DNA of 64,000 nucleotides from the sequence record MT884006.2. The stretch is one strand, 5' to 3'. This stretch comes from Escherichia phage vb_EcoM_bov9_1. This document shows, one piece after another, positions 2,429-64,000 of the stretch (position 1 is its first letter; each line of letters begins with the position of its first letter). The position numbers and the translations under genes were made by a program. Below the pieces are notes generated by a model, which was not told the origin of the DNA, did not search any database, and was given only the letters and a program-made list of their open reading frames with translations.

Positions 2429-2458
2429 ATTATACCACATCCTTGTGGTAAAGTAAAC
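2429..2458 (-). promoter_or_regulatory. T4-type early promoter (GTTTAC -35, TGgTATAAT extended -10 on minus strand)
   Basis: plus strand shows attatacca...gtaaac with about 18-nt spacer, i.e. reverse complement of the early promoter consensus; lies between gene 39 stop and the rIIA.1 start. Confidence 0.6.
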
Positions 2459-4278
2459 TACTGGCTCATCCATTCTTTACGAAGGTCAGCATTATCCCCC
2501 ATGAGCATTTCAAAAAGCTCTTTCCAGTTCTCAGGAAGTTTAACAACATCATATACTGGGTTTTGAATCATCTCACGATATTCAGATTTTTCCAAAGAGC
2601 CAAGTCCCTTAATATAACGGATGCTATGTTTAGGTAGAGCATCTTTGGCACTCTCATATTCAGCGACTGTATAAAACCATTCTTGTTTTTTACCGACCTG
2701 AGCGATGATTACAGGAGTTTTGACAAAACGAATTCGTCCTTGCTCAAACAATTCTGGCCAATTACTAAAAAATCCGAGCAGAGAAGGATAAATGCTTCCT
2801 AAACCATCATGGTCAGCATCGGTCATAATAGCAATATTATGATAATTCAAGTTTTCAGCTTTTTCACCAAGAACTAATCCAGTGATTGCGCAAATATCAA
2901 ATAGTTCTTTGTTTTTAAGCATATCAGCATATGACATACCCCAACTGTTGAGAACTTTACCACGCAATGGATAACCACCATGAAGTTCTTTATCACGAAC
3001 ATCAATAAGATATCCGATAGCAGAATCACCCTCGGTTAAGAACAATGTAGTATCAGCATCTTTACCACAAAGATTCGCTTTAATATGTTTATGAACCTTA
3101 GCTTTAGAAGCCTTTTTAGCTGCTTTAGTTTCTGCTGCTTTTTCTGCTGCCAATTTACGAGCCAAGGCAGCTTCAATAATCGGCATTAGAATTGCTTCAT
3201 TATTTAGAATAGCACGTGAAATCTTTTTAGCATCAAGCTGAATATGACTACGGATTTCACCAAATGGAGAAGTCAAACGCTCTTTAGTTTGAGAATCAAA
3301 TCGCATGTTTTTCATATCACGAACAAACATAACGATAGTCAAACATTCTTTAACGCGTGCTTTAGTTACATCAATTTTGAACTTACGTTTGATTTGTGGA
3401 ATAAGGTCTTCACAAATATCATCCATAACACAGTCAATGTGATGGCCACCATTCTTAGTATGAATGTTATTGACGTATGTTAATTGACGAAAACCATCCG
3501 GTGAACGACCAACCGCAATAGAACAATTTTCTTGTTCTTGAACGATAGCATGCTCATCATATTGGCGTGCATATTTCTTAAAATTGCCCTGAACCTTTTT
3601 ACCATTAAAGGTAAATTGAATATCAGGATAAACTACTGCAAGTGTCTGGAGACGATCTAGTGTAATGTCAAGATAAACTTGGGACAGCTCATTAGTTTCA
3701 AATGACATAAAATCAGGAATGAAAGTAACACGAGTTCCTTTCCATTTTCCAGGAATATCTTCCCATGATTTATTTTCCATGCCGTTTGAACAACGAACTA
3801 CAATATTATTTTGACCATCACCAGTTTCACCGACAAACATCACAGAAAAAATGTTTGTCAAACTAGAACCAACACCATTCATACCGCCAGTGACGCGTTC
3901 TTTATCATCACCAAAGTTACCACCTGCTTTTGGAATAGTCCATGCAGCAACAGGACCAGGAATTTCTTCACCGGTAGGTGTTTTAACCATTGCCTGCGGA
4001 ATACCACGACCGTTATCTTCAACTGTTACTTGATTGTTTTTAATAGTAACATTAATTTTATTTGCGAATTTAAACTTAGTACGAATACCTTCATCTACTG
4101 AGTTATCGATAATTTCATCAATAAGCTTAACAAGACCAGGTACATACTGAACACTTTCCCATTTACCAAACAGAAAGCGCTCATGCATTTCATTAGCTGA
4201 AGAGCCAATGTACATGCCGCTACGCTTTTTGATGTGTTCAATATCACTCAGAATTTTAATTTCATTCTTAATCATCAC
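2458..4278 (-). CDS. 39: DNA topoisomerase II large (ATPase) subunit, unsplit gp39 (contains the region that is separate gene 60 in T4)
   Basis: 606-aa ORF; GyrB/ParE-like GHKL ATPase motifs (IIDNSVDE, EDNGRGIP, GGMNGVGSS) followed by TOPRIM-like region (LFLTEGDSA); contiguous reading frame. Confidence 0.9.
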   Translation of the reverse strand: MMIKNEIKILSDIEHIKKRSGMYIGSSANEMHERFLFGKWESVQYVPGLVKLIDEIIDNSVDEGIRTKFKFANKINVTIKNNQVTVEDNGRGIPQAMVKTPTGEEIPGPVAAWTIPKAGGNFGDDKERVTGGMNGVGSSLTNIFSVMFVGETGDGQNNIVVRCSNGMENKSWEDIPGKWKGTRVTFIPDFMSFETNELSQVYLDITLDRLQTLAVVYPDIQFTFNGKKVQGNFKKYARQYDEHAIVQEQENCSIAVGRSPDGFRQLTYVNNIHTKNGGHHIDCVMDDICEDLIPQIKRKFKIDVTKARVKECLTIVMFVRDMKNMRFDSQTKERLTSPFGEIRSHIQLDAKKISRAILNNEAILMPIIEAALARKLAAEKAAETKAAKKASKAKVHKHIKANLCGKDADTTLFLTEGDSAIGYLIDVRDKELHGGYPLRGKVLNSWGMSYADMLKNKELFDICAITGLVLGEKAENLNYHNIAIMTDADHDGLGSIYPSLLGFFSNWPELFEQGRIRFVKTPVIIAQVGKKQEWFYTVAEYESAKDALPKHSIRYIKGLGSLEKSEYREMIQNPVYDVVKLPENWKELFEMLMGDNADLRKEWMSQ

Positions 4279-5811: not shown

Positions 5812-6093
5812 TTAATTGAACAGTGGAGCGATGCGTTTCAGAAGAGTAGCAGCACCTTTAGCGAATTTTACATCATGAAAAACAGTTTCTTCTTCCGTTA
5901 CAACACGAGCTTTAATGTTTTCACAATCCCAATTTTTGCGAACAATCTTCAAAAGCTGCAGTAAATCTTTACATTCAGCAATATCGATAACACATCCACG
6001 AGAATCTTCCATTATCGCACGATAACCGTAAGCCATACCATAATCGTTGAAAGATTGCTCGATGATAATTAAGTTTTCCATTTTATTCTCCAA
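5812..6093 (-). CDS. hypothetical protein (N-terminus MENKMEN shared with two other genes in the window)
   Basis: 93-aa ORF preceded by the repeated leader cassette. Confidence 0.5.
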   Translation of the reverse strand: MENKMENLIIIEQSFNDYGMAYGYRAIMEDSRGCVIDIAECKDLLQLLKIVRKNWDCENIKARVVTEEETVFHDVKFAKGAATLLKRIAPLFN

Positions 6094-6178
6094 GTTATTT
6101 TCTGTATCAGTAGTTGATATTGATATAGTACCATAATCAACTACTGATGTATATAGTTTTATGAAAAAATTTTAAACT

Positions 6179-7291: not shown

Positions 7292-7834
7292 TTATCTCAT
7301 TTCAATAAAATCTACAAGTTCAGCATGGGATTTGCGGAACATTACTTGGTGCCCGCCAATGATAACTTGGTCATCTGGCACTTCGTATACAGCAAGATAA
7401 AATCCTTTAGAAGATAATTCTTCACGCTCTTCTCGTGTGAACCATCTCATCATATCATATTCACTAGCGAAAGCAAAATGATAAAGAGCTATAAACCATC
7501 CAGGAATATAATGATCTACGCCTACATATTCTTCTTTCTCAAAGTTAGTATTAATTGCTATATTAGCATTTTTAACTAATAATTTGTCTTCGCGCGGAAG
7601 AGGAATTCTTTTGTTATCATTACTATGATGCATAAAATTAGGTCTATCATAACCTACGTGTAATAACCACTCTTCGCTCCATGAATCTATTATACTCCTG
7701 TATGGCGTTATTTGAACACAAAGATTTCGACGTATTGTTATAGCATCTTCACAATTAAGAATACTAAAAGATGATTCAACACGATAAATTTTCATTTTAT
7801 TATCCTCAGTAGCTATGGTGTTATAATACCACAA
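7292..7834 (-). CDS. hypothetical protein
   Basis: 180-aa ORF with own early promoter upstream. Confidence 0.5.
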   Translation of the reverse strand: MWYYNTIATEDNKMKIYRVESSFSILNCEDAITIRRNLCVQITPYRSIIDSWSEEWLLHVGYDRPNFMHHSNDNKRIPLPREDKLLVKNANIAINTNFEKEEYVGVDHYIPGWFIALYHFAFASEYDMMRWFTREEREELSSKGFYLAVYEVPDDQVIIGGHQVMFRKSHAELVDFIEMR

Positions 7835-13063: not shown

Positions 13064-13246
13064 TTATTTTGCCCAGGGAGCCCAAGGCGGAGGGTCAAGA
13101 TGGTATGAAGCTAGTTCTTCTAGAAGAGCATCTGGGGCTTCAATTCCATAATTCTGTAATACTATACGGTATTCTTTCTTATAATCACTAGAATCATTCT
13201 GGATATTCGTAGAATGATTATCTTCTAACATCTCAAATAAATCCAT
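13064..13246 (-). CDS. hypothetical protein
   Basis: 60-aa ORF. Confidence 0.4.
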   Translation of the reverse strand: MDLFEMLEDNHSTNIQNDSSDYKKEYRIVLQNYGIEAPDALLEELASYHLDPPPWAPWAK

Positions 13247-13254
13247 ACTAATTC

Positions 13255-13725
13255 CTAGCGATAAAAACCAAATTGACGATTAGCTTCAATAATCTTTCTT
13301 TCTTCTTCGGACATTCTCCAGCGTAGTCCAACATCAAAATGAGCCCAGACCATCTTAACAAATGCATTTATATCTTTAATATCTTCAATAATGAATGTTT
13401 TACTTTTAGAAGGTTGACTCGCTAATTTAACTTTATCATCTTCAAATAGGTCAAAAAGACCATATTCATGAGCTCTTTTATAGCCTTTAATAGTTAAAGC
13501 TTCAGAAGAAGAAAACGGTGAATCGGTATTATGCAAAATATCTTCAGTATGCTTTATAATTAGAATAACATTTTCTGGATATTTTCTTTCTTTTATATCT
13601 TTAATTAAACTATCTGGATTTTCTGCTAAAGGAATAATCAATGAGCAATTTTTATCAAGCGTATTTACTGATTTACCTTCTTTAGACATAAATTCTATTG
13701 AATAATGTTTTGCTACTTCAATCAT
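13255..13725 (-). CDS. hypothetical protein
   Basis: 156-aa ORF. Confidence 0.5.
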
Positions 13726-13726
13726 G

Positions 13727-13894
13727 TGATTTCCTTTTGCCTACTAATGGACCGTCAGGAACTTTGTTTTCCTGAATGTATTTCTCATTTTCTTCCATCA
13801 TTTTACTGCCAATTTTACTGCCAATTTTAAGAAGCAAATCCAAGGCTTCATTTGCTTTAGCCTTTGCCTCTTCTAACGTCATATCTTTGGTCAT
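13727..13894 (-). CDS. small hypothetical protein with KIGSKIGSK repeat
   Basis: about 55-aa ORF not in the track; start overlaps the upstream stop (ATGA), stop overlaps the downstream start; coordinates hand-derived. Confidence 0.3.
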
Positions 13895-17442: not shown

Positions 17443-17610
17443 TTTTACTCTTCTTTTTCTTTAGATTCCTCTTTTTTCTTTTTAGGAATCTGTTCAGGAC
17501 CTTTATTTACTACAGCACCTGACGTTGTTCCAGTAGAGATATTTTCAGGATTACCACCTGAATCTCCAGCAACCATATCTTCTTTAATAAATTCTTTATA
17601 TGTTTTCATA

Positions 17611-17967
17611 TTAACCTCTATTCATAAAAGCATTAAAAATTTGGTCATCAATCGATGGAATAGCAACTTTTTCTGCATCATTTAGCAAATCATTAATTTC
17701 ATCAGATAGCATAACACATGTACCTTTATTTCCTGTAATTGTTACTGCACAATTACGAACGTTTTCTTTATTAAATTTTAGGTTAATATTTTCGTAATGA
17801 AAATCCTTTAATGCCGAATATATCTTTAAAATGAAATTGTCTTTTACTACAATAAACCCAACCTCACTATTAAAACGTGGTTCATGGAAACTGTAATAAA
17901 CCTTTTCATCTATAAAATCGTATGAAATTTTTTCCATTTTTAAATATGAAAATTCAGAACTATACAT
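17611..17967 (-). CDS. hypothetical protein (61.1 position)
   Basis: 118-aa ORF; C-terminus SIDDQIFNAFMNRG shared with the next gene. Confidence 0.5.
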   Translation of the reverse strand: MYSSEFSYLKMEKISYDFIDEKVYYSFHEPRFNSEVGFIVVKDNFILKIYSALKDFHYENINLKFNKENVRNCAVTITGNKGTCVMLSDEINDLLNDAEKVAIPSIDDQIFNAFMNRG

Positions 17968-17968
17968 A

Positions 17969-18616
17969 TTAACCTTTATTCATAAAAGCATTAAAAATTT
18001 GATCGTCAATAGAAACTTTTACTTTAGGCTGTTCTTCAAACGGTAATTCATATCCACATATTACAATTTTGTGATCGATACCAAAATACACAGAAGCAAT
18101 ATGATTAATATTATTTTCAGTGAAATCTAAATCAACATCAATATCTTTTTGACCACAGCCCAAAGGATAATTAATACGAATAATTCGATTATCTTTAACA
18201 AATATTCCACCGACATACTCTGTGCTGCGTTTAAAGTTTACACGTTTCCTAAATGAAAAATATTCAGGTTCTTTATGAGCCCGACTCATAGGACACAATG
18301 AGTAGCTAGAATAAGAGATGTCAAATCCTACACCTTCAATATGAATATGAGCCAACGTGTCATGATTAAACCAATTATAATCATATGCCAAATCCATTAT
18401 ATTGTAATATGTGAAAGGCACCGGATTAACATCATGTGTTGTACCTTTAAAATCTGCCCAGGCAACGATTTCGTTATCTTTAACAATTACAAAAATTACA
18501 CCGATATGGTATCCATTATTATTTTCATTCGGCGTTATATTATAACATTGCGCATTAGGAAATTTACCATATTTAAACGGCGCGTTTTTGTGCATGTAAT
18601 AAATCATATTATTCAC
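17969..18616 (-). CDS. hypothetical protein (61.2 position)
   Basis: 215-aa ORF; C-terminus SIDDQIFNAFMNKG. Confidence 0.5.
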   Translation of the reverse strand: MNNMIYYMHKNAPFKYGKFPNAQCYNITPNENNNGYHIGVIFVIVKDNEIVAWADFKGTTHDVNPVPFTYYNIMDLAYDYNWFNHDTLAHIHIEGVGFDISYSSYSLCPMSRAHKEPEYFSFRKRVNFKRSTEYVGGIFVKDNRIIRINYPLGCGQKDIDVDLDFTENNINHIASVYFGIDHKIVICGYELPFEEQPKVKVSIDDQIFNAFMNKG

Positions 18617-24884: not shown

Positions 24885-25133
24885 TCAAATACAAGTAGTA
24901 ATTACTCCAGTAGTGCTTATGCAGGTATTACCCATTTGCACACCTAAAGATCCATTTGTATTCACATGAAGATTATCATCAATTTTAACTGATATTTTAC
25001 CATTAGTGTGAATAACAGTGCTAGATTCAATCACAGGTTGAGTATCATTTTCAACACTAACAAATGGAACTGCTGTTAATGCAACTAAACAAACTGCTAA
25101 GCATCCCATAACAATTTTCATTTTATTCTCCAA
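24885..25133 (-). CDS. predicted secreted or membrane-anchored small protein
   Basis: 82-aa ORF with N-terminal hydrophobic signal; begins MENKMK like two other genes. Confidence 0.5.
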   Translation of the reverse strand: MENKMKIVMGCLAVCLVALTAVPFVSVENDTQPVIESSTVIHTNGKISVKIDDNLHVNTNGSLGVQMGNTCISTTGVITTCI

Positions 25134-25158
25134 ATCTGTATCAGTAGTTGATAGTTGT

Positions 25159-25188
25159 ATAGTACCATGGAAGAACAGTCTTGTAAAC
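25159..25188 (-). promoter_or_regulatory. T4-type early promoter inside a repeated promoter-leader cassette
   Basis: minus-strand GTTTAC-18-TGgTACTAT; cassette also seen near 51108 and 52547. Confidence 0.5.
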
Positions 25189-25270
25189 AGTTTTGTGAAA
25201 AATTTTTTAATGAATCCAAAAGGTCCAGAATCATCTGTTTTTCACAAGTATAGATTTATATTACTTGTAT

Positions 25271-25292
25271 GAAAAAGGGACCCGGAGGTCCC
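25271..25292 (-). terminator. intrinsic terminator hairpin downstream of gene 43
   Basis: gggacc-cgga-ggtccc inverted repeat with flanking A/T tract. Confidence 0.55.
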
Positions 25293-25305
25293 TAGATTTA
25301 TTCTA

Positions 25306-40035: not shown

Positions 40036-40065
40036 ATAATACCACGGTTTGAACTTGTTGTAAAC
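40036..40065 (-). promoter_or_regulatory. T4-type early promoter
   Basis: minus-strand GTTTAC-18-TGgTATTAT. Confidence 0.5.
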
Positions 40066-45050: not shown

Positions 45051-45229
45051 TTAGAAATAGACTTTTCACCGTTAGAATAATAAACTTCAAGTTTAGCACG
45101 ATTATTTTTAATTTGAATAACCTTTGCTGTCATCAAAGTTCCATACCCATAATAAACTGCAACTTCATCACCTACATATACCGCGCTTCCGCGGTAATCG
45201 TGAATATAGTCAGTTCCTTCGAGCATCAT
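45014..45229 (-). CDS. hypothetical protein
   Basis: 71-aa ORF. Confidence 0.4.
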   Translation of the reverse strand: MMLEGTDYIHDYRGSAVYVGDEVAVYYGYGTLMTAKVIQIKNNRAKLEVYYSNGEKSISKWKYGDCMVKLG

Positions 45230-45489
45230 TTAAAATATTCTCGCAGTTGGTCAAATCCACCAATATGACTTCCATCAGGAGCAAATACTTGTGGCATTGT
45301 CAAACCAATTTGAGTATCACGACCTAGTTTAGCCAGAAGCTCAGCGATTTTCTCATCATCAAAAACACCTTTTTCCGGCATAATGTTGATAAATTCAAAC
45401 GGCTGTTTCTTCACGGTCAAAAGACGTTTTGCATTATCGCAATACACACATTTATGAATGTTGCTATCATAACCATATACTTTAAACAT
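45226..45489 (-). CDS. nrdC: thioredoxin/glutaredoxin NrdC
   Basis: 87-aa ORF; CVYC active site; size equals T4 NrdC. Confidence 0.85.
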   Translation of the reverse strand: MFKVYGYDSNIHKCVYCDNAKRLLTVKKQPFEFINIMPEKGVFDDEKIAELLAKLGRDTQIGLTMPQVFAPDGSHIGGFDQLREYFK

Positions 45490-45490
45490 A

Positions 45491-45733
45491 TTATTCCTTA
45501 ATTCCTAGTACTCGTTTAAAAGTCTCGTCGTAATCAAGACTTTGGCCCGTTTGTTCTTTATGTTTGTATATAATATCACTTACTTCTGATAGCATATTTT
45601 TATATGAACGAGTTAAAGCAGATTTAAGCACGCTGTATCTATCAGGAAATTTACCATGTTCATTATAATACGCTATTGCTAATTCACGGACTGCCTTTTC
45701 AGCAGTCTCCATATATTCTTTACGCTTTGTCAT
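45491..45733 (-). CDS. hypothetical protein
   Basis: 80-aa ORF. Confidence 0.45.
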
Positions 45734-45735
45734 TT

Positions 45736-46125
45736 TTAATCCAAAATATTATTAGGCATTGGTTGAACACTCACAAGTTCTTTAAAGAACTCAGTAGAAT
45801 CAGGCAATTTAACCATTTCCGGAGCATGCTTATTAAATTTATGTTTACAATGACGGCATTTATATTCAAGCTCTGGTTTACGCCAGTTAATCAATTGAAC
45901 TTGTTCAGTACCGCATTCAGGGCAATTAGGAACGTTTTTAGAAGCTCTTTCACGTCGTTCAACCATAGCCATAATAGCATCCCATGCTGGAGGTTTAAAA
46001 TCTAAATCGTCGCAGCCGTGAATCTTTCCACGCATTTCCATATCATCTTCCTCACCAGCCATAATAATTTTAATTAAACTGGAATTACTTGAAGCTGCAA
46101 TGTCTTCTAATAAACGCTTTTTCAT
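45736..46125 (-). CDS. zinc-ribbon protein (CPECG...CRHCKH)
   Basis: 129-aa ORF. Confidence 0.5.
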
Positions 46126-47051
46126 TTCAATACCTCAATAGCATTACGTAAACCATTTGCTTTTGCATTAAGAGCTTTTAACAATTTGGTGTGTTCTGCA
46201 ATTTGGGCTTCAACTCCAATCAAACGGGCATTGAGATATTCACGTTCTTCACTCAGATTATCAACCTTTTCTACTTTAGGCTCTTTTACAACTGTCTTAT
46301 ATGTATTAGGGTTCTTCAGTTTAATTAGAATGCGTGAACTGTATAACATTGAACCATTATCTTCGGTTTCGTCATACATTTCCACTACGTCCATAATTTT
46401 TAACATCATGCGGAGTTTATAAGACAACGAACGAATAGTTTTGTTGTGCTTATTAATTTCTTTAGCTGTCATGGTGCCAAGATTACGTGAGTAATAATAA
46501 GGAACCTGGATATTAATTAATACTGATGAACCACCTGGCTTGTGTGTTACTTCATCAGCAATAACCCAGTCCTTAACATGAACTGTATTTGTACGGTCAT
46601 CGCCCGCGGTAAATAGTTTGCGAGCATGCTTAAAAAGCATATTCACTTGGTCATTGAATTGACAAGCAAATTTATCAGCAAATTTAGTTTCAGGAATGGT
46701 AGAAAACCAATCAGCCAAATGAGTCTTTTTAACATCATTAACAATAGTAAATTCAACCAAATCGGTTATAGATGTCTCAGATTTAATGAAGCTCGGCTTC
46801 ATAAAGTTTTTAATGTTCTCATGAGCTACAGTAGAAGATAACATACGAGAACGTTTAAACCATTCAAGCAAATTGCCTAACGAATGAGAATAAGCGTTTT
46901 GAGTATCTTTACAGATATGATTTTCCTGGCTAACATATTGAAGGAAATCACGAAGAATATTATTGATTACTGCTCTGTGTCCGATCTGATAATTACGATG
47001 TTTAGTAATAAGACTGTCAAAATAATCAATATAATGTTTACGAGTTTTCAT
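46122..47051 (-). CDS. hypothetical protein with C-terminal coiled-coil tail
   Basis: 309-aa ORF ending in a heptad-like segment. Confidence 0.5.
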   Translation of the reverse strand: MKTRKHYIDYFDSLITKHRNYQIGHRAVINNILRDFLQYVSQENHICKDTQNAYSHSLGNLLEWFKRSRMLSSTVAHENIKNFMKPSFIKSETSITDLVEFTIVNDVKKTHLADWFSTIPETKFADKFACQFNDQVNMLFKHARKLFTAGDDRTNTVHVKDWVIADEVTHKPGGSSVLINIQVPYYYSRNLGTMTAKEINKHNKTIRSLSYKLRMMLKIMDVVEMYDETEDNGSMLYSSRILIKLKNPNTYKTVVKEPKVEKVDNLSEEREYLNARLIGVEAQIAEHTKLLKALNAKANGLRNAIEVLK

Positions 47052-47105
47052 GTTCTTCTCACTTGGTTAATGATTTATACTCCGAGCCATCCTTGGCTTT
47101 AAATT

Positions 47106-48137
47106 TTACTTAATTAACTGTAAAGCCTGTTCTAAACGATCAAGACGATTAACAGATTCTTCCCAAATCCTTTTAGCCTGCTCATATTCTTTCTGCGCTT
47201 TATTAGAAATTTCTAGAACTTCTTTATAAGCTTTTTCTAATGCAATAACTTCTGGACGAATTTCTACCTGTTCAGGTGAATCATCAAGACATTCCATTAG
47301 TTCCTCAAGGGTAGTTTCTTCTTTAGGAGTATTCACAATTTCATCACATTTTTGTTGGTAAATTTCTTTATTAGTCGGTGAGTACGCACACTTTACTTCA
47401 CGAAGACTAATTATAATTTTATATCCTTCCCATCCACACATATTTTTGAAAGGATATGTATGAATACTTTTTACAGTTTCCATACAGCCCAAAGCCGTCT
47501 CTAATTGATGAGTTATAGTGCTAGCAATTGAGAAAAATTTATTAATGTTCTTTTGATTAGCTGCTGGTGTAAAAAATCCATAATTCACAAAAATAGCTAC
47601 TTTATTTTTATCAAGCTCATATTCTTTTACGATAATCATATCAGAAGCCAAAGGATGAATTTGACGATAATCGCCATAACATAATTTAGAAGCTGATTTT
47701 AGAATTTGTCCTTTGAAAAGTCTGAAATTACTAATCCAACGACGAGTAAAAATATTCTCAGGGTCTTCTTTGATATTAAGATGATAAGAATTAACATCAC
47801 CGAACCAATTATATCCTACTACATCTTTGGTTCGTTTAATTTCTTTCCCAAAATTACCAAGAATATCCCGATTAACCAAATATGAAAGAAGACGAGATCC
47901 TTTAAAGGTTTTCTTAATGGCATCTTTATTTGTACGACTAGAAATTTCATGAACTTCATGAATAAATTTGCCGGAAGAAACAATACTTGCATCAATATTA
48001 TTGAGCCATTGATTGATAATAGAAAGAACACTATTTTGGCCAAACAGCGGTATAACTTTATCATCAATAACGCTATTGAATGATTTGATATATTCGTTAC
48101 GAGTCATATTAATCTCCTCAGTAGAAAGTAAGAACAT
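47106..48137 (-). CDS. hypothetical protein with C-terminal coiled-coil tail
   Basis: 343-aa ORF. Confidence 0.5.
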   Translation of the reverse strand: MFLLSTEEINMTRNEYIKSFNSVIDDKVIPLFGQNSVLSIINQWLNNIDASIVSSGKFIHEVHEISSRTNKDAIKKTFKGSRLLSYLVNRDILGNFGKEIKRTKDVVGYNWFGDVNSYHLNIKEDPENIFTRRWISNFRLFKGQILKSASKLCYGDYRQIHPLASDMIIVKEYELDKNKVAIFVNYGFFTPAANQKNINKFFSIASTITHQLETALGCMETVKSIHTYPFKNMCGWEGYKIIISLREVKCAYSPTNKEIYQQKCDEIVNTPKEETTLEELMECLDDSPEQVEIRPEVIALEKAYKEVLEISNKAQKEYEQAKRIWEESVNRLDRLEQALQLIK

Positions 48138-48165
48138 TATACCACATCCTTGTGGCGAAGTAAAC
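48137..48165 (-). promoter_or_regulatory. T4-type early promoter
   Basis: minus-strand GTTTAC-17-TGgTATAAT. Confidence 0.6.
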
Positions 48166-49184
48166 TAGTTCAGTGCATTTAGTGCGTTGTTCAGTTTAGA
48201 ACGTTGCTTCGTGAGATTTTTGACTTTTTCTTGAGCTTTTTCTAGCATCTTTTCAGCTTCTAGCACTTCATTGGTCGCTTTAACGAGTTCATCATCTACT
48301 GCCTTGATAGACTTCTCAATCGCATCCGCGTGCCATTTTTCAACAGGTTTAAGACTCGGATTTTCAATAGGAAGAAAATTCACTTTATTGAATTTCCATG
48401 CATCTTTATTGCCTGAACTATACATCCAAAATTTAGGATCGTTTGATGAGTAATTAGATAAATTTAAGTTATCTTGCACTTCTTGCTTTTTCTCTTGCGG
48501 GACTTCATCCTTTCTCAAAAAATCGTATTTAAATGAAACGATCATATCAAGTTCATATGTTGTTGTATGTTCCCAATTTCGCTCAAAACGAGGTAAAATC
48601 TTAGAATGAACAGCGGCAACAACATCCATATACTTAAATGCTTCTGTCAACTGCGATTTAAGGCATTCGCAAATTGAAAGAGAATTTTTTGTATTAGGTT
48701 TAAAGCTAATTCGTGCAGTTCTATTATTTTCTTTTAATGGTCTTACTTCCATCTGAAGAGTATAACCATCAAATTTCAGGTTCTTTAAGTTAATGTCAGA
48801 ACCTTTTAATCGACTAGCCGTCGACAAAATTTGCTTTAATTGTTTACGGAATAGAGCAATAAATCTCCATTCAATACGATAATGATTTGGATTGAAAAAT
48901 CCAGATGATAAATCGACCTTACTCTGACCAACACCTTGAACAAACAGAGGATTTTTATAATCAATAGTTTTACAGAAATCGGTGAGCTGCTCACGAGCAG
49001 TCATTTGTGTAATATATCCCGCTTTACTAAAATGACGTAACCATTCACTGCTATTCATATATTTAAAGTGAATATCACGATTAACTTTATCAGGGTCTAA
49101 ATTATTTTGGCACAAAAATGTCATAACATCACGAGTATAGCTGGCATTACGAACCATATCTTCAATTTGAGAACGAGTTTTCAT
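48165..49184 (-). CDS. hypothetical protein with C-terminal coiled-coil tail
   Basis: 339-aa ORF. Confidence 0.5.
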   Translation of the reverse strand: MKTRSQIEDMVRNASYTRDVMTFLCQNNLDPDKVNRDIHFKYMNSSEWLRHFSKAGYITQMTAREQLTDFCKTIDYKNPLFVQGVGQSKVDLSSGFFNPNHYRIEWRFIALFRKQLKQILSTASRLKGSDINLKNLKFDGYTLQMEVRPLKENNRTARISFKPNTKNSLSICECLKSQLTEAFKYMDVVAAVHSKILPRFERNWEHTTTYELDMIVSFKYDFLRKDEVPQEKKQEVQDNLNLSNYSSNDPKFWMYSSGNKDAWKFNKVNFLPIENPSLKPVEKWHADAIEKSIKAVDDELVKATNEVLEAEKMLEKAQEKVKNLTKQRSKLNNALNALN

Positions 49185-49192
49185 GGTGTTCC

Positions 49193-50095
49193 TTAAGATT
49201 TAAGTAAATCAACAATTTTAATTAACTTTTCACGCTCAGATTTAGCTTTACTACTCAATCCAGATAGTCTAAAGATTTCATCGTCATATTGTTGAATAGA
49301 AATATTCAGCTCTTCAATTTGCTTATTAAAATAATCAATTTGTTCAGAATGTTTTTCGTTACTACGAACTGGTACAGGTTTTGTAGGAAATTTAGTTAAA
49401 CTGGATTCATCCGGGCGATAAATTAAAATACAATTTGAACCAATCGGGCATTTAGCACCAGACACATATTCTAATGTTCCAGCTTCCTTTAAAACTTCAA
49501 AAGCTAAACAGAGATGATGCCCCATATTGACATAATCTGTAGAGTGAGCTCTGACGTAATAATCATCTCCACGAGTGCTAAATTTAAAGCATTTAAGGTC
49601 TTCTGTATTATTAGTTTTAAAAATCATTTGTTTATCTAAACCTTTAGCTAATCGAGCGCCTAATGCTAATAATCGTCGTTGATTTTCCCACAAATCCGCA
49701 ATCATTTGATCGAATGACAATTTCGGCATTAGTCGACCATAAAGGTCATATCCTTTATTATAATTGCGAAGGATTTCACTCGCGTTAATACGAGACAATG
49801 CTCCGATTTTATTAAGGGCTTTCATGATGCGATTAGATAAACCCATTCCAGACCCGTTTGTTCGTTGTAAATGTTTTTCTAATCCAAATCCAATATCAAC
49901 TTTAAATTTATCTAAAATTTCAGCATGAACATCTCTGTCAATAACATTCAAATCCAAAGTTGGGTTAAATCTATGAAAAAATTTATCTGGCTCTCCACGA
50001 CGAAGTACAGTCCATTCATTTAATTTTTTATTAACTAAAGATTTAATTACTGCGTTGATATTATTAATTACTACTGACATATTTTCCTCACTCAA
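49193..50095 (-). CDS. hypothetical protein with C-terminal coiled-coil tail
   Basis: 300-aa ORF. Confidence 0.5.
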   Translation of the reverse strand: MSEENMSVVINNINAVIKSLVNKKLNEWTVLRRGEPDKFFHRFNPTLDLNVIDRDVHAEILDKFKVDIGFGLEKHLQRTNGSGMGLSNRIMKALNKIGALSRINASEILRNYNKGYDLYGRLMPKLSFDQMIADLWENQRRLLALGARLAKGLDKQMIFKTNNTEDLKCFKFSTRGDDYYVRAHSTDYVNMGHHLCLAFEVLKEAGTLEYVSGAKCPIGSNCILIYRPDESSLTKFPTKPVPVRSNEKHSEQIDYFNKQIEELNISIQQYDDEIFRLSGLSSKAKSEREKLIKIVDLLKS

Positions 50096-50496
50096 TTTTC
50101 AATTTTACTAAATACACAGAATATGATGGAAAAGACTATATAAGCACCGCATACAGATTGAACTAATACCATTCCAAAGAACCAAACAATATTATCAAAC
50201 ACTGTCTGTTTTACGTCGAAAGGACGTAAACTTACAGTAATATTATCGCCTTTTTCTATTGATGAATACATCTCTGGTGAAATATATTCACTAAATCTAT
50301 AACCGTCTTTGAGTTCATATACGGCAATAAACGATAAACTAGACCCCTTTCCTTGAGTTCCTGTAAGGGTATTAACTACAGTAACATCATAATCTTTATA
50401 ATGCATATAATCATTAATTGCATAATAACCATATGCAACTACTACACATAAACAACATATCAATAAATTCAATCTTTTAATTATCAACTGTTTCAT
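50092..50496 (-). CDS. membrane protein (N- and C-terminal hydrophobic helices)
   Basis: 134-aa ORF. Confidence 0.5.
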   Translation of the reverse strand: MKQLIIKRLNLLICCLCVVVAYGYYAINDYMHYKDYDVTVVNTLTGTQGKGSSLSFIAVYELKDGYRFSEYISPEMYSSIEKGDNITVSLRPFDVKQTVFDNIVWFFGMVLVQSVCGAYIVFSIIFCVFSKIEN

Positions 50497-50551
50497 AATA
50501 ATCTCAATTAAAAGGGCTTAGAACCATTATACCATCCTTGGTATAAAGCGG

Positions 50552-51139
50552 TTATGCGAGTACCGTCTTTAACCGTTCTTCAAACTTCCGAAGAGTATTT
50601 TGGCGTTCAGCTCTTTGCTTTTTGTAAGTTTCAATACGCTCTGAAATGAGATTGTATCGTTCATTTACTGATTCTTTCATAAAATCAGGAATTTCACGAG
50701 AAGCTTTAATCTCGTCAAATTTATCAATAACAGCTTGCTCTTCAGCAATTAAGTTATCATACATCAAAATATCTTTCTTGATGAACTCAATATCTTCTTG
50801 AGTTACACGAGATAATTTAGATGCTTTATCCTTTTTGTACTGTTCGTTAGTATCACGAGACCAGTGTAATGTACGATTTTTATTCGTATTCTTGTAAATT
50901 TCTACAATACCAATCTCATCGATAATAACGATCCAATTCCAACGGGATTTGTAAATTTGTCCTCCATCAACAGTGATTTCACCTCCGATTGAGATGTCAT
51001 TAAAGAACTTGCTTTGTGCTTCAGATTTAAATTTACCATCATTGTAGTTTACCAAGTTGAAAATATCTTTAGCATTCATTTTCTGTTCCTCCGTAGTTGA
51101 TAGTTGTATAGTACCACAGAGGAACGGTCTTGTAAACAA
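50552..51139 (-). CDS. hypothetical protein with C-terminal coiled coil
   Basis: 195-aa ORF; start probably internal. Confidence 0.45.
   Translation of the reverse strand: MFTRPFLCGTIQLSTTEEQKMNAKDIFNLVNYNDGKFKSEAQSKFFNDISIGGEITVDGGQIYKSRWNWIVIIDEIGIVEIYKNTNKNRTLHWSRDTNEQYKKDKASKLSRVTQEDIEFIKKDILMYDNLIAEEQAVIDKFDEIKASREIPDFMKESVNERYNLISERIETYKKQRAERQNTLRKFEERLKTVLA
51108..51137 (-). promoter_or_regulatory. T4-type early promoter in a repeated cassette
   Basis: minus-strand GTTTAC-18-TGgTACTAT. Confidence 0.5.
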
Positions 51140-51454
51140 CTAAAAGAAACTTCTTTCACAATTTTTTCCACTGAACCACGCACTCACTGCTTTCTTAGTC
51201 TCAGGAGCAGTGTTATCCATAAACCATTCAAAGGCAGCCTTTTTATGATTCTGGAGGGCTTCTCGGGCTTTAATCTGCTCACGGTCTATTAACACTAACA
51301 TATGAGCCTTTCTTGTCACCAAGGGCTTCTTATGATTTTTTGAATACTCCCAGTCATTTGTCCATCGCATTGTCGTTGCGAATTGAAATACAGCTTCTTT
51401 AATTTTAGTTTCGTAAATTTCACGAGCCTTTGAGTATAACATCATTACCTCCAT
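51140..51454 (-). CDS. hypothetical protein
   Basis: 104-aa ORF. Confidence 0.45.
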   Translation of the reverse strand: MEVMMLYSKAREIYETKIKEAVFQFATTMRWTNDWEYSKNHKKPLVTRKAHMLVLIDREQIKAREALQNHKKAAFEWFMDNTAPETKKAVSAWFSGKNCERSFF

Positions 51455-51543
51455 TTACCAGTTTAATTCTAGTCATCTTTTTGATGGCAGTCCATATAAT
51501 CTATTTCTGAACTGCCTTTTTATCTTAGAAGGCCTCTTATGAA

Positions 51544-52524
51544 TTATTTCAGAAGAGTAACCTCAGCGATTTCTTCCCAACCGTTTTTGTCGGTCATAAT
51601 AAAGTCAGCAAGATAAAGAGCAGTACGCAGTGAAACATTGCGTAAACGATTAACATTGACTTTCATCCATGATAATGCTTTATAAGTTTCTTCATCAGAA
51701 AGACCACGCTTTTGCATCATGTCAGTTGAAAGAATAACATCTTCAACCCTGACCATAATTTCTTCATTAGTGTGAACACCCAAATCCAAATAAACTGAGC
51801 GGGACACTAATGCTTGTAAATGTGGAGCAAGTTTAGTACCACGGTCTAATTCGCGGTCAATGTCAACGTTTGTGATAAAAACAATCGTTCCTTTAAATTC
51901 AAACTCACGCTCAATGCCTTTTTCTTCTAAGTAAGAAGATGCGGTGCTCCAGCAGACTTTACGGGTCTCTCCAGTGTCCAGAGCAGCTTTCAGAAGATTA
52001 AGAATGTCCATATCAGAGAAAACATCCACATCATCAATCAAAAGGACAGAATTCTCTTCACGATTATTCCAAAGCTGCTCATAAAGACCAATACCAGAGA
52101 TTTTACCATTAATGCTTTTATATTCAATGTATCCAATATCATTTGCTTTATTTAAAGCTTTATCTAAAGAATACGTTTTACCAATACCTGCTGCACCAGA
52201 GATAATTAATGAACGAATGTTTCCGTTAATAATACCATTCGTCATCATTCCCATAACATTAAATCTTTTATTAATGCGGGTTTTCATATCTTCATACGAT
52301 TCTTTAACTTCTTCAACTTTTACACCATCATATGAAATGTCTGATTTGTAAACCCAAACACCGCGACGTTTACCGTCAATTTCAACAAAAACTTTACCAT
52401 CTCCTTGTGCATCTACCGGAGCATTATCTGGGAACCATTCGCCTAAGAGCTCAAAAGTTCCAGAGATTTCTTTACCGAAGTAGATACCCTTATTGATAGT
52501 TACAGTTTTCATTTTATTCTCCAA
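51544..52524 (-). CDS. P-loop ATPase (AAA-like)
   Basis: 326-aa ORF; Walker A GAAGIGKT and Walker B VLLIDDVD. Confidence 0.6.
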   Translation of the reverse strand: MENKMKTVTINKGIYFGKEISGTFELLGEWFPDNAPVDAQGDGKVFVEIDGKRRGVWVYKSDISYDGVKVEEVKESYEDMKTRINKRFNVMGMMTNGIINGNIRSLIISGAAGIGKTYSLDKALNKANDIGYIEYKSINGKISGIGLYEQLWNNREENSVLLIDDVDVFSDMDILNLLKAALDTGETRKVCWSTASSYLEEKGIEREFEFKGTIVFITNVDIDRELDRGTKLAPHLQALVSRSVYLDLGVHTNEEIMVRVEDVILSTDMMQKRGLSDEETYKALSWMKVNVNRLRNVSLRTALYLADFIMTDKNGWEEIAEVTLLK

Positions 52525-52546
52525 ATCCGTATCAGTTGATAGTTGT

Positions 52547-52576
52547 ATAGTACCATAAAGCTTTATGCTTGTAAAC
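52547..52576 (-). promoter_or_regulatory. T4-type early promoter in a repeated cassette
   Basis: minus-strand GTTTAC-18-TGgTACTAT upstream of the ATPase gene. Confidence 0.5.
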
Positions 52577-52604
52577 AGTTTTGTGAAAAATTTTTGAAAT
52601 AAAA

Positions 52605-52625
52605 AAGGGAGCCCGAAGGCTCCCT
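52605..52625 (-). terminator. hairpin with UUCG loop
   Basis: gggagcc-cgaa-ggctccc followed by a T-tract on the minus strand. Confidence 0.55.
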
Positions 52626-52626
52626 A

Positions 52627-53640
52627 TCATTTATAATAACTTCGGTGGTTTTCAAGATAGACCTTCTCAAGGAAGTCATCCCAGAAACTCATGTCTACTG
52701 TTTTAGGCATACCATTCTTAGAAGCTTCAGTAGATGCTGCTTCTACTTGATCGACCACATCTTCCAAAAACTCTTGAACTGTTTTAAATGGATGTTTACC
52801 CAACTTCACGTCGAGAATAAATGGAGCATCTTGGAGTGGATAAATCAAGTCGCCAGTTTTGTAAATTTCCAATAGTTGAAGTCCACCACGACAAGCATGA
52901 CTTAGTGCTTTCCAATCAATACCTTCATTAGCTTCGGCCTTACGAGCACGTTCACCATATTCAGCATCTAATTTGTTCAGTGACTGCTTAAGCTCAATAA
53001 GAGAAAGCGTTGTCTGATATTTACGACCCAGCACTGTATAGAACATTTGTGGACCTGTTTTCTCATGATTATGGAACACCCATTCACAGAATTCGTTTTC
53101 TGGAAGACGATGCTTAATATCTTCAACTTTAGTACGACGCTGCTTAATGGAACCGTCTTCTTGGTAATCAACCCATTGCTCAGGGATTTGATTAACTACT
53201 TTCAATACATCACGTAATGCAGCCAAACGAGAACCCTTGACGCCGTATTTAGAAGCTTGCTTGCGGACATATCCTAAATAGGATTTCATGTTAGTCGTAT
53301 AAAAACGAGAACGGTTGTCTTGAATAAACTTCCACACATCAGGCAAATCAGATTTAACCACTAGTTCAGGTGGAGTGTGAAGCATATCCAATGCTACAGT
53401 TTCACCATCTGCTGCTAATTTAAAGAAATACTTAAGACTATACAATTCGTGGTCAATATCATCTTTAGTGTTTTTAGATGATGTGTTGTTGGTATTTTTA
53501 CTCATATGCTCTTTAACATTTCCGATAAGAATATCACGAGCAGGAGGAACAAAGATTTCTTTAAAATCTACATCAGATTCTGGGGTAGAAGTTCCATAAA
53601 GATGACTACCAAAATAGCTTTTCATTACTGTTTTCATCAT
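52627..53640 (-). CDS. putative nucleotidyltransferase (Pol-beta-like NTase fold)
   Basis: 337-aa ORF; N-terminal GSHLYGTSTPESDVDF resembles the GS...DxD motif of Pol-beta-superfamily nucleotidyltransferases. Confidence 0.5.
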   Translation of the reverse strand: MMKTVMKSYFGSHLYGTSTPESDVDFKEIFVPPARDILIGNVKEHMSKNTNNTSSKNTKDDIDHELYSLKYFFKLAADGETVALDMLHTPPELVVKSDLPDVWKFIQDNRSRFYTTNMKSYLGYVRKQASKYGVKGSRLAALRDVLKVVNQIPEQWVDYQEDGSIKQRRTKVEDIKHRLPENEFCEWVFHNHEKTGPQMFYTVLGRKYQTTLSLIELKQSLNKLDAEYGERARKAEANEGIDWKALSHACRGGLQLLEIYKTGDLIYPLQDAPFILDVKLGKHPFKTVQEFLEDVVDQVEAASTEASKNGMPKTVDMSFWDDFLEKVYLENHRSYYK

Positions 53641-56122: not shown

Positions 56123-56319
56123 GCCATGTGAGTTGCAACTTCATCACACATATTATAGCGTTTCTTAAGAAGTTCTACAAGTTCTTCACTAGTAACTTCA
56201 TCCATGTCGACGAAAAAATCACCATTAATGATGACGTAGATATTTCCTTCTTGATTGAGTGCTTCAATTTTCATGATGTTCTCCTCTTTATCCGATAGTT
56301 GTATAGTACCACAGCTCAA
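56086..56319 (-). CDS. hypothetical protein
   Basis: 77-aa ORF; start probably internal. Confidence 0.4.
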
Positions 56320-56332
56320 ACGGAAAGTAAAC
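56303..56332 (-). promoter_or_regulatory. T4-type early promoter
   Basis: minus-strand GTTTAC-18-TGgTACTAT. Confidence 0.5.
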
Positions 56333-56347
56333 CGGTAAAATGAAAAA

Positions 56348-56365
56348 AGTCTCCCGAAGGAGACT
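56348..56365 (-). terminator. hairpin with UUCG loop
   Basis: gtctcc-cgaa-ggagac. Confidence 0.5.
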
Positions 56366-63572: not shown

Positions 63573-63595
63573 TTTATCCCTCCAAGTAACTGTGA

Positions 63596-63627
63596 ATATA
63601 CTATCACAATTCTAGGAGAAAGTAAAC
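63596..63627 (-). promoter_or_regulatory. candidate early promoter upstream of denV
   Basis: minus-strand GTTTAC present; -10 region weak. Confidence 0.35.
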
Positions 63628-63631
63628 AACT

Positions 63632-64000
<369 letters not shown>

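Follow-up and report, generated by a model that had tools for sequence, protein, structure and literature searches.

Repeated T4-type early promoter cassettes in front of early genes of a Tequatrovirus

Five nearly identical segments recur in the 64,000-nt stretch of DNA from Escherichia phage vb_EcoM_bov9_1 analysed here (MT884006.2; hereafter the window), and their best explanation, which we consider very probable, is that each copy is an early promoter cassette of the T4 type and a portable, PeSL-like joint for accessory genes. As read from the sequence, the copies combine promoter elements, terminators, hairpins, an exact RegB/S1 motif, blocks shared in mosaic fashion and joints that fall within the cassette. 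The repeats are real but ordinary. The phage is a Tequatrovirus with some 500 close relatives among the phage genomes compared, and genome-wide counts were made on MT884007.2 (Escherichia phage vb_EcoM_bov10K1), whose nucleotides 1-64000 are 100% identical to the window by megablast. The minus strand carries all the annotated genes of the window but one, in the order rIIA to e as in T4, and all its early genes. Defining a T4-type early promoter as GTTTAC, 15 nt, TGn and TAnnnT, we counted 30 in the genome, all of them in early regions; 18 of these lie within the window. Each of the five copies stands before a codirectional early gene, in DNA orthologous to a T4 intergenic region, namely motB/cef for the copy at 6086, 43/imm.1 for 25123, nrdC.9/nrdC.8 for 51070, nrdC.11/nrdC.10 for 52510 and rI.-1/mobD.5 for 56262; the T4 cassettes at motB/cef and 43/imm.1 are near-identical to those of the window.

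The five copies had been listed on the plus strand in a preliminary description of the window, and all were found at the positions given there. Their 30-nt core and the 20-nt segment beginning with GTAAAC recur far above chance, shuffled sequences yielding 0.00 and 0.05 matches, respectively. A multiple alignment of the five extends from the upstream A/T tract as far as the start codon, and the copies thus align well beyond the promoter hexamers, to which the preliminary description had allowed that the likeness might be confined. Over the 20 nt that follow the -10 hexamer the mean pairwise identity is 69% among the five copies, against 33% among the other 13 early promoters of the window, and only 4 of 8568 five-promoter subsets are as alike as observed. 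The sites at 40036 and 11709 have only general promoter parts in common with the five. The core TGGTACTATACAACTATC occurs in eight copies in the genome, three of them outside the window (67801, 143817 and 160440, the last being the motA promoter). The five copies are part of one subfamily, recognizable by TACTAT and the leader ACAACTATC(AACTAC), that has at least eight members in the genome, while a sister type, TACTAT TACCCTATCAACTAC, is found at 71762, 143086 and 163577. Two further records, H69 and H70, were considered as instances of the cassette in unrelated phages and set aside: H70, at only 46.9 kb, is classified as Tequatrovirus, and the record of H69 (26 kb) is partial, unverified and not classified to family level. 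A further cassette copy appears to be present in each, lying near e.7/e.8 in H70.

Read on the minus strand, the cassette consists in order of an A/T-rich UP-like element TTTTTCACAAAACT, GTTTAC, a 15-nt spacer, TGG TACTAT, a leader, a ribosome-binding site and ATG, and the composite of A/T-rich tract, early promoter, Shine-Dalgarno (SD) sequence and start codon fits within about 100 nt in all five copies. The transcribed leader common to the copies is ACAACTATCAACTAC(TGATACAG), with ATCAACTAC... at +1 to +15. The preliminary description had read each segment as a terminator hairpin, a promoter with GTTTAC and TACTAT elements, a shared leader and a ribosome-binding site. The promoter and common leader stand in all five copies, but the ribosome-binding site is identical in three, the upstream terminator is present in only three, and the quoted spacing of 18 nt is that from GTTTAC to TACTAT, the true arrangement being GTTTAC-15-TGG-TACTAT (in the sigma-70 register, TTTACA-17-TACTAT with TG). 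TGG TACTAT is kept at identical spacing in every copy and GTTTAC is exact in four. The 6086 copy has ATATAC instead (TATACA in the sigma-70 register), which had been taken for a lost -35; the same ATATAC is found in T4, Ac3 and A6-6, with the TGn extended -10 kept, and it is thus a conserved variant and not local decay. The UP-like tract reads TTTTTCA(C/T)AAAACT in the 6086, 25123 and 52510 copies, and the A/T-rich tract upstream of the promoter is formed by a terminator T-run followed by CATTTTACCG in the 56262 copy and by AGTTTCTTTTAGTT in the 51070 copy.

At 43/imm.1 (all features on the minus strand, as in the other four loci) an intrinsic terminator hairpin, GGGACC-UCCG-GGUCCC with a U run, follows gene 43 at 25276-25293; it has a folding energy of -13.9 kcal/mol (z = -2.9) and was also detected in the terminator scan. 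It is followed by the UP-like element TTAAAAAATTTTTCACAAAACT (25189-25212), shared with the promoters at 52552, 6130, 67798 and 160437, the -35 GTTTAC (25183-25188), the extended -10 TGG TACTAT (25159-25167), the common transcribed leader ACAACTATCAACTACTGATACAGATTT (25132-25158), and the ribosome-binding site GGAGAATAAAA with the ATG of a 78-aa accessory ORF (25119-25131; CDS 24885-25121). The motB/cef cassette (6079-6176) has an UP-like element, ATATAC at 6149-6154, TGG TACTAT at 6125-6133, GGAGAATAAAA at 6081-6091 and ATG at 6079-6081. In the nrdC.9/nrdC.8 cassette (51077-51160) GTTTAC lies at 51132-51137 and TGG TACTAT at 51108-51116, before the leader, the SD GGAGG and the ATG at 51077-51079. 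The nrdC.11/nrdC.10 cassette (52510-52625) comprises a terminator (52606-52625), an UP-like element, GTTTAC (52571-52576), the 14-nt spacer palindrome CATAAAGCTTTATG, TGG TACTAT (52547-52555), the leader, GGAGAATAAAA (52512-52522) and ATG (52510-52512). Finally, the cassette at rI.-1/mobD.5 (56272-56365) has its terminator at 56348-56365, GTTTAC at 56327-56332, TGG TACTAT at 56303-56311, the leader ACAACTATCGGATAAAGAGGAG and ATG at 56272-56274.

Three of the downstream genes had been described as beginning with the same residues, MENKM. The underlying TTG GAG AAT AAA ATG (TTGGAGAATAAAATG), whose TTG lies at 25131-25133 in the 43/imm.1 copy, is instead a GGAG, a 6-nt spacer and an ATG. The GenBank record starts these genes with ATG at 6081, 25121 and 52512, as T4 does imm.1 and nrdC.10. 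That coding sequence forms part of the shared segment, the three genes being paralogues or having a common N-terminal MENKM from the TTG, has next to no chance of being correct: the frame is indeed open in all three copies, but an in-frame match is automatic because the TTG stands 12 nt before the ATG, and the region upstream of the TTG holds no SD sequence. Moreover, in RB68 and JK23 this promoter is combined with different ribosome-binding sites, and the TTG is missing. The downstream proteins are spread over six PHROG families, none with a known function, and show no similarity to one another; Pfam and PHROG searches assigned them no functions, with only weak sub-threshold AAA/STAND NTPase matches for nrdC.10. 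The true gene starts are the ATGs, as in the record, and gene callers may wrongly extend the three ORFs to the TTG.

The segment misread as coding does correspond to a functional motif. The consensus of strong RegB/S1 cleavage sites, as a citing passage of PMC3014915 gives it from Durand et al. 2006, is GGAGRAYARAA (cleavage marked after GG), and GGAGAATAAAA fits it at 11 of 11 positions. This pattern has exactly three matches in the 64 kb, all on the minus strand (6081-6091, 25121-25131 and 52512-52522; 0.5 in shuffled sequences), and all three are the supposed MENKM sites, the ribosome-binding sites of the other two copies being GGAGGAACAGA and GGAGAACATCA, without the full motif. The window also carries regB, and the protein it encodes is 100% identical to T4 RegB. 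Since GGAGAATAAAA fits the 11-nt recognition sequence, the RegB of this phage would cut there, and cleavage in these three copies would end translation after a few minutes. The resemblance to strong RegB/S1 sites extends to all 11 positions, to the location in the initiation region of early genes, to the unstructured context of the putative motif (the common leader folds at -1.9 kcal/mol, z = -0.3) and to the presence of RegB, while the cassettes differ in that only three of five have the full motif, recognized here from sequence.

The constancy of the leader calls for a separate evaluation, as the conserved (C)TATCAACTAC might be a cis-regulatory element, either a factor site or an enhancer of translation or stability, kept constant by function more than by recombination. 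We regard this as unlikely. After TACTAT, CTATCAAC is kept across several Tevenvirinae genera, while the preceding 4 nt and the spacer vary; the constancy in this cross-genus set is nevertheless there by construction, because the search pattern required CTATCAAC. The motif is also shared with the motA promoter, and its small palindrome, TATCA-N-TGATA, survives a 3-nt deletion of the loop in the 52552 copy. On the other side, many strong early promoters are without it, no factor is known for it, the common leader folded alone forms no significant RNA structure (the values given above), and an Rfam scan of the whole window at gathering thresholds returned no match. No significant structure was found either in the whole cassettes at 25123, 52510 and 56262, and given that neither these nor the leader are structured, the idea of a leader RNA element defined by structure was dropped.

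The preliminary description further proposed that the cassettes could act as portable expression modules and recombination substrates, which the gene content of related genomes supports in part: unrelated genes stand behind the cassettes and three of the five slots vary, but two are invariant and indels are not significantly enriched near early promoters. The same core is found in front of at least 12 unrelated genes in IMG/VR contigs and the genomes fetched. Across about 500 Tequatrovirus genomes, presence, absence or replacement of genes was observed at motB/cef, 43/imm.1 and nrdC.11/nrdC.10. When cassette boundaries were compared with these breakpoints, the joints at the three variable slots fell inside the cassette, namely in the upstream element with the -35, in the CTATCAA of the leader or in the ribosome-binding site. 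In the same genomes no gene-content variation was seen at nrdC.9/nrdC.8 (51070) or rI.-1/mobD.5 (56262).

Two slots serve as worked examples. The 43/imm.1 slot has three alleles: the 78-aa ORF of the window, present in roughly two thirds of the sampled records; an empty slot, as in T4; and an unrelated 83-aa ORF, as in RB68 and T2. In T4 and RB14, which are without the ORF, an 8-nt repeat, ATGAAAAT, marks the fusion of imm.1 to this same cassette (promoter, leader and ribosome-binding site). The 83-aa ORF, carried by RB68, T2, RB27 and 28 other Tequatrovirus records, is joined on the left directly after ...CAACTAC and on the right at the imm.1 ribosome-binding site; Dhakavirus IME08 has a 57%-identical homologue of it in the slot after rI.-1, preceded by a terminator/GTTTAC/TACTAT/CTATCAACTA cassette. 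The second example, nrdC.11/nrdC.10, presents modules stacked between direct repeats. JK23 has two extra ORFs and a second promoter in this slot, ACG-C40 adds to these a ModB-like ADP-ribosylase module, and AndreasVesalius has a different ORF, with joints in the upstream element with the -35, in the leader CTATCAA and in GGAGAAnAAAATG. The ACG-C40 modules lie between direct cassette repeats of 54 nt (the first 37 nt identical) and 52 nt (73% identity). At motB/cef about 205 nt of the ORF, from just after the ATG, are deleted in T4, T6 and PST, leaving an out-of-frame remnant. In Ac3 and A6-6 an additional motB-like gene lies upstream, and the block of high identity starts at the upstream edge of the cassette.

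Between the window and T4, 3 of 23 indels or replacements are bounded at 60 nt or less from an early promoter, against 1.3 for random placement, a difference that is not significant (P = 0.14). The remaining events are for the most part insertions of homing endonucleases or fall at other gene junctions, and on either side of the extra gene at 17611-17967 the repeated sequence, of 49 nt, is that of a plain gene junction. Given the two invariant slots, this P value and the other types of joint, the cassettes are one such type among several. Some joints comprise just 8 nt of microhomology, as with ATGAAAAT at T4 imm.1, which any short repeat could supply.

The block composition of the copies bears on how their likeness arose. 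Promoters 143814 and 160437 are identical in all parts compared, that is, upstream element, -35, spacer, -10 and first leader bases. Promoter 25164 has the spacer of 163577, the leader of 160437 (motA), and an upstream element and ribosome-binding site in common with 52552, while the ribosome-binding site of 51113 is common with 163577. A small set of shared blocks (upstream element, spacer, -10 with leader, ribosome-binding site) makes up the copies in mosaic fashion, and such reticulate combinations are the pattern that exchange among copies would be expected to produce. In an alternative scenario the likeness would stem only from convergence on a strong promoter and a RegB-sensitive site, with no shared descent, recombination or role in shuffling. 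T4 early promoters do share consensus beyond the hexamers (PMC2988021), the ribosome-binding-site block matches a functional 11-nt motif, spacers differ between otherwise near-identical copies (e.g., 25164 vs 52552), and the indels relative to T4 show no significant enrichment near promoters. Yet early promoters equally close to consensus, of the TATAAT type, have unrelated leaders (the 33% identity above), and the full identity of 143814 and 160437, the reticulate block combinations, the 37-54 nt direct repeats around the inserted modules of ACG-C40 and the joints of alternative alleles that fall within the cassette all speak against convergence only, a scenario that we consider distinctly improbable. 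Because the copies are mosaics of shared blocks, we attribute their likeness to functional constraint as well as to repeated recombination between copies, although convergent selection, in place of exchange, could account for part of the block sharing.

A dedicated site-specific system of the integron type, with the cassettes as its recombination sites, is a possibility of the kind raised by Arbiol et al. (PMC2839356), and mini-circles have been shown in RB49/phi1. The breakpoints here are scattered over the upstream element with the -35, the leader, the ribosome-binding site and an 8-nt microhomology, and their position at different places of the cassette argues for homology-driven exchange and not for one fixed crossover point. 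T4 is not known to have a recombinase beyond its general recombination system. Such a dedicated system thus appears highly improbable.

Under the preferred reading, that of portable early promoter cassettes, T4 orthology and the promoter sequences suggest that host sigma-70 RNA polymerase would fire these promoters immediately after infection. The patches of 40-90 nt of homology at gene boundaries would provide joints at which accessory genes can be inserted, deleted or swapped between related phages, presumably through homologous recombination by the phage's general recombination system, and genes exchanged at the cassettes would keep their own expression signals. The cassettes would also be insulated from upstream transcription, by a terminator in the 25123, 52510 and 56262 copies or by a hairpin spanning the promoter in the 6086 and 51070 copies.

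Only the former three copies have an intrinsic terminator upstream, with a UUCG or UCCG loop and a U run. The 6086 and 51070 copies have no terminator but a 13-bp hairpin that spans the -10, its 5' arm in the -35/-10 spacer and its 3' arm in the leader. In the motB/cef copy this is an inverted repeat around the -10 (6106-6118 / 6136-6148 on the minus strand; -20.2 kcal/mol, z = -4.6); at nrdC.9/nrdC.8 the arms lie at 51113-51125 and 51085-51097 (minus strand; -19.4 kcal/mol, z = -3.8), and the spacer pairs with the Shine-Dalgarno GGAGGAAC, which forms the 3' arm, such that translation should be possible only for transcripts started at the local promoter.

Of the phage's 30 early promoters, 15 have a strong spacer-leader hairpin with the -10 in its loop, and at least eight of these hairpins bury the SD. 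Promoters with the hairpin are without an upstream terminator in 14 of 15 cases and promoters with a terminator are without the hairpin in seven of eight (Fisher P = 0.035; Mann-Whitney P = 0.012). Among 142 distinct promoters from all the loci compared, 59 have a perfect spacer-leader inverted repeat of at least 6 bp, compared with 22.8 ± 3.8 in permuted pairings, and in per-sequence folds the pairing at the regB, denV and nrdC.8 promoters is kept in other genera with different arm sequences. Formal covariation in a MAFFT alignment of regB promoters found 2 of 15 pairs to be compensatory, a count that is uninformative; between lineages the arms shift register. We tentatively put forward, at slightly less than even odds in our own estimate, that T-even early cassettes come in two interchangeable insulated forms, with either a terminator upstream or a spacer complementary to their own leader or SD, each allowing expression from the cassette's own promoter only. 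In the second form, read-through RNA would fold with the -10 in the loop and be untranslatable, while locally started RNA would begin within the loop and remain free. Expression of each gene would then depend on its own promoter alone and be confined to the period of early-promoter activity. Such autonomy, if true, would let a cassette move anywhere with its gene. The ribosome-binding-site-hiding hairpins listed in a 2010 review (PMC3014915) are all late-promoter cases, those of e, soc, 49 and I-TevI; the 51070 hairpin resembles these leaders in pairing sequence upstream of the local start with the SD, but the promoter inside it is early. That early promoters appear insulated by a terminator or by a promoter-spanning, ribosome-binding-site-hiding hairpin is a side observation open to direct testing.

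The cassettes match T4 early promoters and the published PeSL model (2010, 2014), and the finding is in this sense already known: the early promoters are catalogued and the idea of portable cassettes is in print since those two papers, so that little is added to the knowledge of T4. T4 early promoters combine UP, -35, TGn and -10 elements with extra consensus regions (PMC2988021, PMC1524935), and the five copies share with them the UP-like A/T tract, GTTTAC at -36 to -31, TGn, the -10 and the position before early genes; they differ as a subfamily with TACTAT in place of TATAAT and a common leader of 15-25 nt, and one copy has ATATAC. Like integron cassettes or lambdoid "morons", they let a small accessory gene travel with its own expression signals, but there is no integrase or attC-type site, and the regulatory repeat itself is the homology for exchange. 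The closest parallel is the PeSL, made up of an AT-rich tract, early promoter, stem-loop, SD and start codon in hyperplastic regions (PMC2839356). PeSLs adjoin ORF indels and swaps, with mini-circles in RB49/phi1 (Arbiol 2010, PMC2839356), and the model was extended to PST/T4 and nt-1/KVP40 with the consensus TTTACW-N17-TAYWAT (Comeau 2014, PMC4122927). The cassettes of the window have the same composite, occur in many copies in plastic early regions, at three of the five slots beside ORF indels and swaps between close relatives, include modules between direct cassette repeats, and have a stem-loop either upstream of the promoter (25123, 52510, 56262) or spanning the -10 (6086, 51070). In the PeSLs of PST/T4 the stem-loop lies upstream of the promoter, whereas here it spans the -10 in two of the five copies and in half of the early promoters; these two copies are in turn like the PeSLs of RB49/phi1, whose stem-loops overlap the -10 and were read as terminators or attenuators (PMC2839356).

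The cassettes are each composed of an early promoter, a leader and a ribosome-binding site. At the position between gene 43 and imm.1, where the present phage carries a 78-aa ORF and T4 carries none, RB68 and T2 have an unrelated ORF of 83 aa. A homologue of this RB68/T2 ORF, with 57% amino acid identity, was found in the Dhakavirus IME08 (L016, 2394-2475). There it follows rI.-1, which is the position of the cassette slot at 56262 in the window, and is preceded by a terminator and a GTTTAC/TACTAT/AGACCTATCAACTA cassette. The RB68/T2 ORF family thus occupies the 43|imm.1 slot as well as the slot after rI.-1 in IME08, and so a single family is found in two cassette slots and two genera.

Parts of a cassette are also found elsewhere. 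Half of the 52510 cassette, comprising the -10 element, leader and ribosome-binding site, has a 95.7%-identical counterpart in a phage record otherwise unmatched by the 2.3-kb query (L055, an IMG/VR contig of 158,099 bp; NC_027344.1, Salmonella phage STML-198, 89265-89311). GTTTAC is absent upstream of the L055 copy, and an unrelated 59-aa ORF follows the half-cassette.

A strong hairpin encloses half of the early promoters of this phage. On the minus strand of the window such promoters have their -10 elements at 7828, 51113, 60517, 63603, 19439, 55496, 6720 and 6130, and others lie at genome positions 119011, 127969, 130989, 133986, 143086 and 163577. The hairpin's 5' arm resides in the -35/-10 spacer and its loop contains the -10 element, whereas the leader supplies the 3' arm, which in many cases is the Shine-Dalgarno itself. 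An upstream terminator is absent at 14 of the 15 hairpin promoters, and a single one of the eight promoters with a terminator has the hairpin. In other genera, the promoters of regB, denV and nrdC.8 retain the pairing of spacer and leader, with different arm sequences. A second promoter subfamily, whose two copies (window 2429-2460 and 48136-48167; 94% identity over 32 nt) precede rIIA.1 and nrdC.4, has a small spacer hairpin (CCACA AGGA TGTGG) overlapping the TGn. Additionally, between the gene 43 terminator and promoter (window 25235-25277), a 7-bp inverted repeat, ACAAGTA/TACTTGT, also kept in T4 and RB68, flanks TATAAATC, which differs by one base from the T4 late-promoter consensus TATAAATA.

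In the GenBank record, the eleven consecutive genes nrdC to nrdC.11 (window 45226-53637) are labelled "thioredoxin" and modA.2 to modA.4 (13064-13894) "molybdenum ABC transporter"; both labels look like names derived from the gene-name prefixes rather than functions.

Gene content differs from that of T4 at several sites. The topoisomerase large subunit is a single unsplit gene of 605 aa (window 2458-4275), in place of which T4 has gene 39, the mobA remnant and gene 60, the last containing a translational bypass of 50 nt. The window also has an additional gene of 118 aa (17611-17967), bracketed by a 49-nt direct repeat (17607-17655 and 17965-18013; 92% identity) composed of a gene end, a ribosome-binding site and an ATG. 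In T4 the gene is absent and the repeat single-copy; this indel arose through a repeat at a plain gene junction and not through a promoter. The promoter upstream of denV (63576-63640) is unlike its T4 counterpart, which is of the type CTCCTGTAG...CTACAGGAG, and exactly at this site T4 has the additional ipII and ipIII, approximately 1.1 kb. The region is that of the internal-protein locus, where cassette-like shuffling is known.
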